From assembly GCA_963778065.1 (NCBI GenBank), contig CAVZSU010000001.1, positions 523,742 through 587,741 of the forward strand: DNA of 64,000 bases, given 5' to 3'. Under the pieces are notes generated by a model. The model ran no database searches. It saw only the letters and a program-made list of their open reading frames with translations, and was not told where the DNA came from. Of this stretch, positions 16,858 through 17,044 are shown in pieces (the stretch's first letter is position 1; each line of letters begins with the position of its first letter). This DNA comes from an uncultured Solirubrobacterales bacterium (GTDB lineage: Bacteria; Actinomycetota; Thermoleophilia; Solirubrobacterales; Solirubrobacteraceae). Position numbers and translations under genes: made by a program.

Positions 16858-16891
16858 TTAAAAGGCGAAAGGCCCGCTCTCGCGGACCTTT
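16858..16891 (-). terminator. Intrinsic terminator-like hairpin (distal)
   Basis: GC stem with GAGA loop followed by TTTCGCCTTTTAA; 21-bp direct repeat of 16930-16950. Confidence 0.6.
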
Positions 16892-16929
16892 GCCTGGGTA
16901 ACCGTCAATTGTTTACCCAGAGTAGCTCA

Positions 16930-16960
16930 TTAAAAGGCGAAAGGCCCGCTTACGCGGGCC
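16930..16960 (-). terminator. Intrinsic terminator-like hairpin (proximal)
   Basis: GGCCCGC-GTAA-GCGGGCC followed by TTTCGCCTTTTAA. Confidence 0.6.
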
Positions 16961-17044
16961 CCTCGGTAAGACAACTGCCCTTTCGGGCTGGGCACCCGTC
17001 AAGTGTCCAGCAAGCTAGCAGCCCTAGCCGTCGCCTTCAATACA

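Follow-up and report, generated by a model that had tools for sequence, protein, structure and literature searches.

T-box riboswitches occupy the 5′ leader of the gene they regulate, where Stem I, a specifier loop, and the T-box antiterminator are found, and RNA I and RNA II of ColE1 are kissing hairpins that arise from the two opposing strands of a single DNA segment. In tmRNA, a tRNA-like acceptor and T arm are combined with a tag-peptide frame; the Y RNA YrlA, whose gene accompanies a Ro60 (TROVE) gene or lies close to one, bears a Ro-binding stem made of its 5′ and 3′ ends. The element considered here was found in a DNA window of 64,000 nucleotides (the whole stretch analyzed, to which the coordinates below refer; positions 523,742 to 587,741 of contig CAVZSU010000001.1, assembly GCA_963778065.1) from an uncultured Solirubrobacterales bacterium. 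It comprises a tRNA-like gene (17118–17045, minus strand) and, 3′ of it, a tail with a hairpin (hairpin A) whose loop is the complement of the anticodon loop of the same gene, and the two partners have changed together across a family of related loci. Its closest functional likeness would be to a T-box directed at its own tRNA or to a kissing pair of the RNA I/RNA II type, with a defining feature of each lacking.

The likeness to the T-box lies in a loop that holds a codon (GAC here) and pairs with the anticodon, and in a second box, GGCNNCGG, complementary to the acceptor 3′ end (GCC). Unlike a T-box, the element is located 3′ of its tRNA and is fused to it; a T-box pairs 3–4 bases, whereas all 7 loop bases plus the stems are involved here. 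A genuine T-box was rejected for this locus, since no same-strand gene lies downstream (the next gene is convergent) and no Rfam match was obtained, even with the limit relaxed from the gathering score to an E of 10. With RNA I and RNA II, the element shares complementary 7-nt loops, kissing that may pass into a full duplex, and specificity set by the loops. There, the partners come from opposite strands and their complementarity is automatic, whereas here the tRNA strand carries both, separated by about 75 nt, and co-evolution is needed to keep them complementary. As in tmRNA, YrlA, and mascRNA, a tRNA-shaped module forms part of a larger RNA and is probably seen by tRNA-processing enzymes; unlike those RNAs, the one described here keeps a complete anticodon arm together with an antisense copy of it. 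YrlA was set aside, as a search of the 94% complete genome detected the controls but no Ro60/TROVE gene (PF05731), and Rfam gave no match; tmRNA was discarded as well, with ARAGORN reporting tRNA genes only within the window.

The earlier note, written from the letters of this locus, had claimed two complementarities between the trailer and the anticodon arm of the tRNA, and both were confirmed, as were all of its coordinates. The hairpin A loop TTGACGG (17010–16988) is complementary at 7/7 positions to the anticodon loop CCGTCAA, C33 included, and hairpin B contains a complement of the anticodon arm that matches at 16/16 positions (inverted repeat 16896–16911/17079–17094). Complementarity by chance is excluded. 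Among 50 tRNA calls made by ARAGORN in the 2.96-Mb genome, the complement of the anticodon arm found at most 250 nt downstream spans 16 nt at this locus and 4–8 nt at the other 49; first-order-Markov shuffling of the trailer, repeated 20,000 times, gave at most 12 nt. A canonical tRNA-Asp with the loop CTGTCAC sits elsewhere in the same genome (G000). A dispersed repeat or mobile element was ruled out as an explanation, given that the trailer is present there in a single copy and that no more than two family loci (one of each of the paralog groups F1 and F2 introduced below) were seen per genome.

The central evidence comes from the relatives of this locus. In total, 72 loci were extracted and 57 full-length ones were aligned (alignment A1), comprising 46 loci adjoining the tgt gene (F1), ten with the loop CYGTCYC (F2), and a single locus (L084) with the loop CCCTCAA (F3); the family as a whole encompasses at least three paralog groups and, over all sequences collected, nine anticodon-loop sequences. 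RNAalifold, applied to A1 without any prompt, joined the anticodon arm to hairpin A by a helix of 14 bp. In counts made on a specified structure, the seven loop–loop pairs are Watson–Crick in 57/57 loci (399/399 cells), with zero G-U. The pair at tRNA position 33 is U-A in 31 loci and C-G in 26; at position 34, G-C occurs 56 times and C-G once; at position 37, A-U (47), U-A (7), and C-G (3) are found, and at position 38, C-G (49) and A-U (8). In an unbiased scan of all column pairs, the same 14-bp helix ranked first, with 141 doubly changed cells and 98% pairing, compared with 90 doubly changed cells in the anticodon stem and 17 in the terminator stem P5. The contiguous complementary run has a median length of 14 nt counting Watson–Crick pairs only and of 16 nt with G-U included. 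Thus, the core idea of the earlier note, that the trailer pairs with its own anticodon arm, is strongly supported by the behavior of the homologs, which keep the loop complementarity in all 57 aligned loci and, in the wider sample, through nine loop sequences, including a change from G34 to C34. The pairing of the anticodon arm with the tail is as well supported as covariation alone allows, and the generality of the observation is much greater than the earlier note could show.

Broader sampling gave a similar picture. An exact pattern in IUPAC (International Union of Pure and Applied Chemistry) letters, run on one genome per species for 185,579 species, yielded 90 stretches; the 80 of them that were listed all belong to records titled as Solirubrobacterales or Solirubrobacteraceae metagenome-assembled genomes. 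The best Watson–Crick run is at least 10 nt in 72 of these 80 loci, the eight exceptions being L096, L103, L135, L151, and L162 (damaged or devoid of the tRNA), L128 (a shortened hairpin arm), L109 (9 nt), and L097, where the anticodon GTT places one G-U against the hairpin and leaves six Watson–Crick pairs. A looser pattern applied to metagenome contigs gave 79 loci, sorted by anticodon call (motif-based sorting misfiled five of them): 38 tRNA(gtc) loci with runs of 8–18 nt, 29 ordinary tRNA-Asn or tRNA-Gln genes serving as controls, with runs of 4–7 nt, and 12 loci without an ARAGORN call. One of those 12, L284, is an F3 relative that differs from L084 in the first base of the anticodon, a difference for which the hairpin compensates (CCGTCAA/TTGACGG vs. 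CCCTCAA/TTGAGGG). When distinct sequences were pooled, 114 passed the filter; three were unrelated tRNA-Gln, and 109 of the remaining 111 scored 7/7 Watson–Crick. The two exceptions are L097, with its single G-U, and L135, which was mis-registered by ARAGORN and in which CTGTCAC, by eye, faces GTGACAG at 7/7 positions. The loop pairs contain one G-U in about 777 cells overall. In six genomes harboring both F1 and F2, the cognate runs are 8–16 nt long, while the cross runs are 3–6 nt, i.e., the paralogs are orthogonal.

The 15 loci left out of A1 are two halves of one element split over contigs (L024, L029), two true tRNA-Asn genes (L025, L026), four copies within open reading frames (ORFs) of genome G078 (L080–L083), two loci with a deleted tRNA half (L068, L086), two with a replaced 5′ half (L020, L055), two with a hairpin inserted in the D loop (L023, L078), and one with an internal duplication (L085). 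The excluded loci that keep both partners stay complementary: 16/16 by eye in L020 and L023, 17 nt in L085, and 18 nt in L078 (seen as L115). The D-loop insertion is a peculiarity in its own right: in L023 (F1), L078 (F2), and L284 (F3), a 25–35-nt hairpin, CCGATCG...CGATCGG, replaces the D loop at the same position, with the complementarity of the anticodon arm and the hairpin intact in all three. The G078 loci represent four paralogous ORFs (that of L080 at 1488–2258), whose first 30 or so codons share 78–84% DNA identity with the tRNA-like domain. These starts are called tRNA-Glu (ttc/ctc) by ARAGORN, a signal-peptide-like stretch comes next, and the sequence GGGGGAGGA, resembling a ribosome-binding site by eye, lies ahead of the ATG; no complementary hairpin is found near them, the best run being 7–8 nt in the 3-kb locus.

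The strand of the RNA can be read from the wobble pairs. On the tRNA strand, the ratio of G-U to A-C is 49:2 in the acceptor stem, 21:2 in the T arm, 19:0 in the anticodon stem, and 65:6 in P5, and this bias in the supported stems argues that the transcript runs on the tRNA strand. It is weaker in the flanks of the long-range helix (67:32) and in the own stem of hairpin A (54:25), as would be expected if one sequence has to satisfy two partners, although this leaves some room for a contribution at the DNA level. The folding z score is −6.17 for the minus strand vs. −4.66 for the plus strand. The acceptor, D, anticodon, and T stems of the tRNA-like domain are each more than 99% paired over the 57 loci, with compensatory changes (at the acceptor pair 6:67, U-G, C-G, U-A, and G-C are all seen), in agreement with the RF00005 fold; the anticodon stem, with 99.6% pairing, is the best conserved of the competing helices. 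This pattern indicates that the cloverleaf itself is under selection. In Rfam, the domain scored 49.6 bits with RF00005 against a gathering threshold of 29, the other tRNA of the window scoring 70.2, and ARAGORN calls it tRNA-Asp(GTC).

Within the domain (17045–17118, minus, as are all parts of the RNA described below), the acceptor stem opens with U1-A72 and is followed by G73 and an encoded CCA end, and the anticodon arm spans 17093–17077 with the loop CCGUCAA at 17088–17082. Further downstream, the 193 nt that separate the tRNA-like gene from a convergent kinase gene hold two modules, A and B. A conserved box, GGCGACGG (GGCNNCGG), lies at 17028–17035 and is complementary to CCGGAGCC (acceptor 3′ strand plus GCC); RNAalifold pairs the box with the acceptor 3′ strand, but both sides are invariant, so covariation is uninformative here. 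The GACGG within this box was tried as a second anti-anticodon site and dropped, as it is not conserved in F2 and, by eye, does not track position 33. The tail is a three-way junction of P2, hairpin A, and P4 (16964–17030), followed by P5. It is closed by P2 (5′ strand 17030–17022, 3′ strand 16971–16964), which forms in pairwise duplex folds and shows clear compensation, e.g., CGGCAAGGC/GCCUUGCCG vs. CGGUAGGGC/GCCCUACCG. P2 encloses the junction motif GCUGCUAGC (17022–17011; CUGSUAGYC in conserved form), hairpin A, or the anti-anticodon arm (16988–17010), with the loop UUGACGG facing anticodon-loop positions 32–38 and an own stem paired in 86% of cases, and P4 (16978–16987), a small GAAA-capped hairpin with 87.7% of its cells paired and two pairs changed on both sides. 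P5 (16938–16965), which terminates module A, is a 12-bp GUAA-capped stem succeeded by CCUUUU; it covaries in its lower stem and was recognized, together with CCTTTTAA, as an intrinsic terminator by the terminator scan. With the 3′ domain taken alone, RNAalifold recovered P5 and merely the inner 3 bp of hairpin A.

Several details foreseen from the single sequence are refined by this comparison. The GAAA hairpin is present, and so is the repeated terminator-like tail, now seen as a 31-nt direct repeat with 90% identity (16858–16888/16930–16960). The 7-bp closing stem AAGGCGA/TCGCCTT exists at this locus, yet its strands are invariant in F1 and, by eye, it cannot form in F2, the covarying helix being P2; the GNRA-capped tail is likewise real, but belongs to a terminator common to the whole order. 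The alternative offered by the earlier note, a larger noncoding RNA (ncRNA) with a tRNA domain as its scaffold, fits the conserved three-way junction and the conservation of the unit as one gene. Overall, the observation was confirmed, and its interpretation in the earlier note is partly supported.

An upstream box, GAGAA..CCCAAGCG..TACTTT, is located at 17131–17160, its −10-like TAnnnT lying 12 nt before the tRNA 5′ end and the box overlapping the last tgt codons. The pattern GAGAA..CCCAAGYG..TAnnnT is common to F1 and to F2, which does not adjoin tgt, and is read as a likely promoter of the element itself; a simple sigma-70 scan found no promoter. In F1, the box encodes the last residues of Tgt, so either F2 was seemingly copied together with the tgt 3′ end or the box is a promoter. 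The whole is best explained as a single gene whose product would be a structured RNA, about 190 nt long, with two mutually recognizing halves.

The two hairpins are both complementary to the anticodon arm, as originally proposed, but they differ in standing. Hairpin B (16894–16920) and the terminator of its module (16858–16893; a GAGA-capped stem and tail, a duplicate of P5) are a recent lineage-specific duplication, and hairpin A is the conserved partner. A second module is present in 3 of the 57 aligned loci (L001, L009, L040), those in which the run of hairpin A shrinks to the 7 loop bases alone, and in all three it matches 12–16 nt; this division suggests that hairpin B has taken over from hairpin A in this genome. 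The close relative G008 (97% identical) lacks module B, and its anticodon stem, altered by a compensated pair, matches hairpin A; a related DNA contig (run X2) also represents the single-module form, lacking the 73-nt module B with a joint of 16859 to 16933. As seen by eye, the tRNA-like genes of L009 (G027) and L013 (G023) are each trailed by hairpin-plus-terminator modules in tandem, as many as three of them, the later ones with the loops GTGACGG and GTGACAG, which now have no exact match to the cis anticodon loop; in L013, hairpin A still matches 16 nt alongside the extra modules.

Other loci show decay of the element. The tRNA half is lost or broken while the tail is kept in L068, L086, L103, L162, and L096. 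Eight tgt loci without a match to the RNA were fetched: five have nothing between tgt and the kinase gene, and the other three, L202 (G036), L206 (G184), and L209 (G094), retain an orphan hairpin with the loop GTGACAG or GTGACGG and a terminator. In these three, the junction motif, CAGACAA, and then the loop were observed directly after tgt. No intact F1–F3 tRNA-like gene without a complementary hairpin was seen among the loci examined. The duplicated modules, the orphan hairpins, and this last absence together suggest that duplication affects the antisense part of the element and that its tRNA part is the first to be lost.

The distribution of the family is narrow. In a first BLAST draw with the region, 18 of 36 same-genus genomes were matched, as was one of 24 genomes of other families, there merely by a 27-nt T-arm stretch; in a larger draw, matches were found in 64 of 201 genus genomes, a tally that takes in partial copies, tRNA-Asn cross-hits, and G065, an unpublished genome. 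When 151 genomes of the order were searched with a covariance model built on the tail (R1), strong matches came only from the genus of the window (G000 and G316; 119.5 and 100.3 bits). Another 16 genomes contained 20 weak matches of at most 38.3 bits, of which the 11 inspected proved to be a P5-like terminator alone, situated after unrelated genes. Hence, P5 is a generic terminator of the order, and the remainder of the element is genus-specific.

The neighbors of the RNA differ between the groups. At this locus, tgt (17129–18346, minus; queuine tRNA-ribosyltransferase family, Pfam PF01702, E 9.7e-117) is the upstream neighbor, its stop codon lying 10 nt before the start of the tRNA-like gene, and the convergent gene is that of a Ser/Thr protein kinase (15592–16851, plus; Pfam PF00069); on the strand of the RNA, no gene lies downstream of module B. 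F1 (46/57 aligned loci) stands directly after tgt in every F1 locus examined, and F2 is mostly accompanied by typA/BipA or ABC-2 permease genes; F1, F2, and F3 have different neighbors and no conserved partner gene. The tgt gene was found in 97 of the 201 genus genomes, including the unpublished G065 and G174. With models of the queA, queC, and queF type, nothing was found above the cut-off in the 94% complete G000; the gene looks orphan, and salvage of a precursor base or another role of Tgt is possible. In many genus genomes (e.g., G002, G083, G198, G019, G025, G146), the tgt match falls into 2–3 pieces in different frames, which could reflect real decay or frameshift errors of assembly. Some ARAGORN calls in G000 are over-long and odd, namely C2:1349560-1349655 (96 nt, 4-base anticodon ggag), C2:1092413-1092510 (98 nt, tRNA-Arg tcg), and C2:1960200-1960293 (94 nt, tRNA-Gly acc); these three could be false positives or genes with insertions.

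As to its origin, the tRNA-like half is best explained as a putative derivative of tRNA-Asn whose anticodon loop fits C-Y-G-U-C-N-N. BLAST cross-hit no canonical tRNAs other than tRNA-Asn(GTT), which are about 75% identical, and the half shares with tRNA-Asn the acceptor pair U1-A72 (U-A in 56/57 loci), G73, and a short, 7-nt D loop; combined with the anticodon GUC, these sequence features might suit a hybrid identity. Global identity of the domain to the tRNAs of its own genome gave no discrimination. The tRNA body (acceptor, D, and T arms) is near-invariant across F1–F3, in contrast to a freely varying anticodon stem. Of the 111 distinct sequences, 46 bear exactly CUGUCAC, the loop of the canonical tRNA-Asp of the genome. 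A canonical decoding tRNA has U33 and a purine at position 37; C33 is found in 26/57 loci (that of the window included), and U or C at position 37 in the ten F2 loci. The encoded CCA is not conserved either, with CCG in several loci. The aspartyl-tRNA synthetase (AspRS) of G000 is of the non-discriminating type (NF003483, 472 bits vs. a cut-off of 353) and gatB is present (coordinates listed jointly for the two: C2:1842019-1843296, C2:50053-51477), and neither an asparaginyl-tRNA synthetase (AsnRS) nor a bacterial-type AspRS was found above the cut-off in the 94% complete genome; thus, Asn-tRNA is probably made by the indirect pathway. According to Bailly et al. (2006, PMC1635274), U1-A72 promotes amidation by GatCAB, and G1-C72 and U20A prevent it. 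By this rule, the tRNA-like molecule would be expected to carry Asn on an Asp anticodon.

Precedents on the tRNA side also deserve mention. Natural hybrid-identity (mistranslating) tRNAs of soil actinomycetes, tRNA-ProX, built on tRNA-Pro bodies, have been described (PMC10404621, PMC11415595), and these represent the nearest precedent: they, too, unite the body of one identity with the anticodon of another, have a non-U33, and come from soil Actinomycetota. Unlike the present case, where no dedicated synthetase gene adjoins the element, they are described without a cis antisense partner. In the CreTA system (PMC8501985), CreT reportedly sequesters a tRNA and CreA acts by CRISPR-Cas transcriptional repression. 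The likeness would consist in a tRNA-linked, translation-interfering small RNA checked by an RNA encoded next to it, as proposed here; the difference is that the proposed antidote would pair directly with the tRNA-like molecule. No CRISPR element was found at the locus, the best CRISPR-repeat match in Rfam being 19.7 bits vs. a gathering score of 35. The Rfam search also returned no known family for the tail, as the earlier note had anticipated; at E up to 10, only sub-threshold chance matches appeared (CRISPR-DR28, BsrF, BjrC68, BSnc120). No description of such an element was found in full-text searches, subscription-only papers being outside their coverage. Hence, for a tRNA gene with a co-evolving antisense copy of its anticodon arm in the same transcript, no described counterpart could be found in Rfam or the literature.

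The favored interpretation, to which a probability of roughly 0.55 is assigned, is that of a self-masking or refolding tRNA-derived RNA, possibly with two states. It starts from the observed conservation, covariation, strand, architecture, and distribution. Complementary loops are combined here with stems that allow extension into a duplex, as in antisense kissing-loop systems, and both partners lie on one strand, which sets the element apart from RNA I and RNA II. The cloverleaf would form first, during transcription; the seven bases of its anticodon loop would next kiss the seven in the loop of hairpin A, with Watson–Crick pairs throughout, and this contact could extend along the stems into a helix some 14–16 bp long. 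Such a helix would bury the anticodon arm and, if fully formed, would unfold the tRNA core. The 3′ strand of hairpin A (column 139) pairs with the 5′ strand of the anticodon stem (column 31) in 53/56 cases and with its own partner (column 125) in 39/56. In nearest-neighbor folding, which ignores tRNA tertiary contacts and modifications, the duplex conformer is predicted to be the more stable one in 56/57 loci, with a median advantage of 13.6 kcal/mol over the enforced cloverleaf. If the molecule is masked in this two-state manner, it would not be a free decoding tRNA, in line with the near-invariant body, the freely varying anticodon stem, and the bases at loop positions 33 and 37 noted above.

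Certain considerations weigh against self-masking. The pairing in the RNA, the order of folding, and masking as its purpose are all inferred. The covariation of two inverted copies could partly stem from copying at the DNA level, and the G-U:A-C ratio in the helix flanks (67:32) is far below that of the proven stems. The near-complete pairing of the anticodon stem (99.6%) suggests that the tRNA fold is also selected, which argues that the full duplex cannot be the sole state, and the energy comparison leaves out the tertiary contacts and base modifications of the tRNA. The hairpin is kept after loss of the tRNA half in L068, L086, L103, L162, L202, L206, and L209, so an orphan hairpin may have a role, or may just persist, without its partner. 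None of the RNA runs listed covers the region, and two soil metatranscriptome runs gave no contig over the RNA; this says nothing either way.

The closest rival, although an unlikely one, moves the pairing in trans: RNase P and a 3′ endonuclease would free the tRNA-like molecule from the 3′ domain, and the latter would be an RNA antidote to a hazardous molecule that reads Asp codons while carrying Asn. The body with its GatCAB determinant and short D loop, the non-discriminating AspRS and gatB of a genome in which no AsnRS or bacterial-type AspRS exceeded the cut-off, and the frequency of the canonical tRNA-Asp loop are all consistent with it, and an addictive logic would fit the orthogonal paralogs, the patchy distribution (64/201), the duplicated modules, the surviving orphan hairpins, and the lack, among the loci seen, of an intact tRNA-like gene without its hairpin. 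Still, C33 and the pyrimidine at position 37 of F2 should weaken decoding, the CCA end is not conserved, and the four G078 relatives do without any hairpin, though they lie within ORFs. A more specific version, an RNA-only toxin plus antidote or a regulated mistranslation module, in which the tRNA-like half would be charged with Asp, amidated to Asn by GatCAB, and decode Asp codons unless kept inert by the antisense arm, seems rather improbable. Also unlikely, and a little more so, is that the loop–loop contact is purely an architectural clamp shaping a larger ncRNA with its real job elsewhere, e.g., in binding a protein that reads the invariant tRNA body. Acceptor, D, and T arms so little changed from F1 to F3 resemble a protein-recognized surface, a defined three-way junction could lay hairpin A along the tRNA, and strictly Watson–Crick loop pairs are a kissing-loop requirement; however, the complementarity reaches both stem strands (the 31:139 pair being kept more often than 125:139), which is needless for pure kissing, and the three groups have no conserved partner gene.

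The product of tgt modifies position 34 of GUN tRNAs, and the 3′ hairpin might accordingly be imagined as a sensor or sponge of the genuine tRNA-Asp in trans, perhaps linked to tgt, with the cis domain as a competitor. The constant position of F1 after tgt, the orphan hairpins that persist there without a tRNA half, GUGACAG loops complementary at 7/7 positions to the canonical tRNA-Asp loop, and a tgt that looks orphan would suit this view, which nevertheless is quite improbable: the hairpin tracks the cis copy (at this locus, TTGACGG vs. the canonical CTGTCAC, with stems matching the cis copy only), F2 and F3 are away from tgt, and about half of the tgt-bearing genus genomes lack the RNA (tgt 97/201, RNA match 64/201). 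No better founded is an inverted repeat acting at the DNA level, with no RNA pairing and with arms kept by template switching, gene conversion, or paired protein or recombination sites. The near absence of G-U from the loops, the flank ratio of about 2:1, and the frequent rearrangement of the region (module duplications, tRNA deletions) could be cited in its favor, but the arms differ strongly between species, which leaves no fixed protein site, and the identical stretch is merely 13–16 bp, short for recombination; moreover, G-U exceeds A-C on the tRNA strand, where P2, P5, and the cloverleaf show RNA-type covariation, and the paralog pairs stay orthogonal. Finally, the earlier note had cautioned that one stem position favors the plus strand; indeed, hairpin A of this genome has a pair that reads A-C in minus-strand RNA but G-U in plus-strand RNA. 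In a plus-strand transcript, the hairpins would be anticodon-arm decoys in the 3′ untranslated region of the kinase gene. This caveat fails on the family, making a plus-strand transcript scarcely credible: the tRNA strand is favored by all well-supported helices (P5 65:6, acceptor stem 49:2, T arm 21:2, anticodon stem 19:0), hairpin A of L009, L012, L013, and L014 bears, by eye, G-U on that strand, and the plus strand folds less well.

If the pairing works as the covariation implies, the element would keep an RNA of tRNA shape inactive, or toggle it between two folds, in a new manner. Its immediate reach is limited by its confinement to one uncultured soil genus, although the RNA is testable in vitro or in a laboratory host, and it may offer a ready-made, programmable tRNA:antisense pair for RNA engineering. 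The family amounts to an unusually clean natural experiment: its loops come in nine sequences, paralogs that share a cell are orthogonal, antisense modules have been duplicated, and some halves have been orphaned. Were the mistranslation module real, loss or degradation of the antisense half would lead to proteome-wide Asp-to-Asn mistranslation, i.e., to an RNA-only control of the fidelity of the genetic code. The element could also be tied to tRNA-dependent asparagine synthesis and to the deliberate mistranslation practiced by soil actinobacteria.

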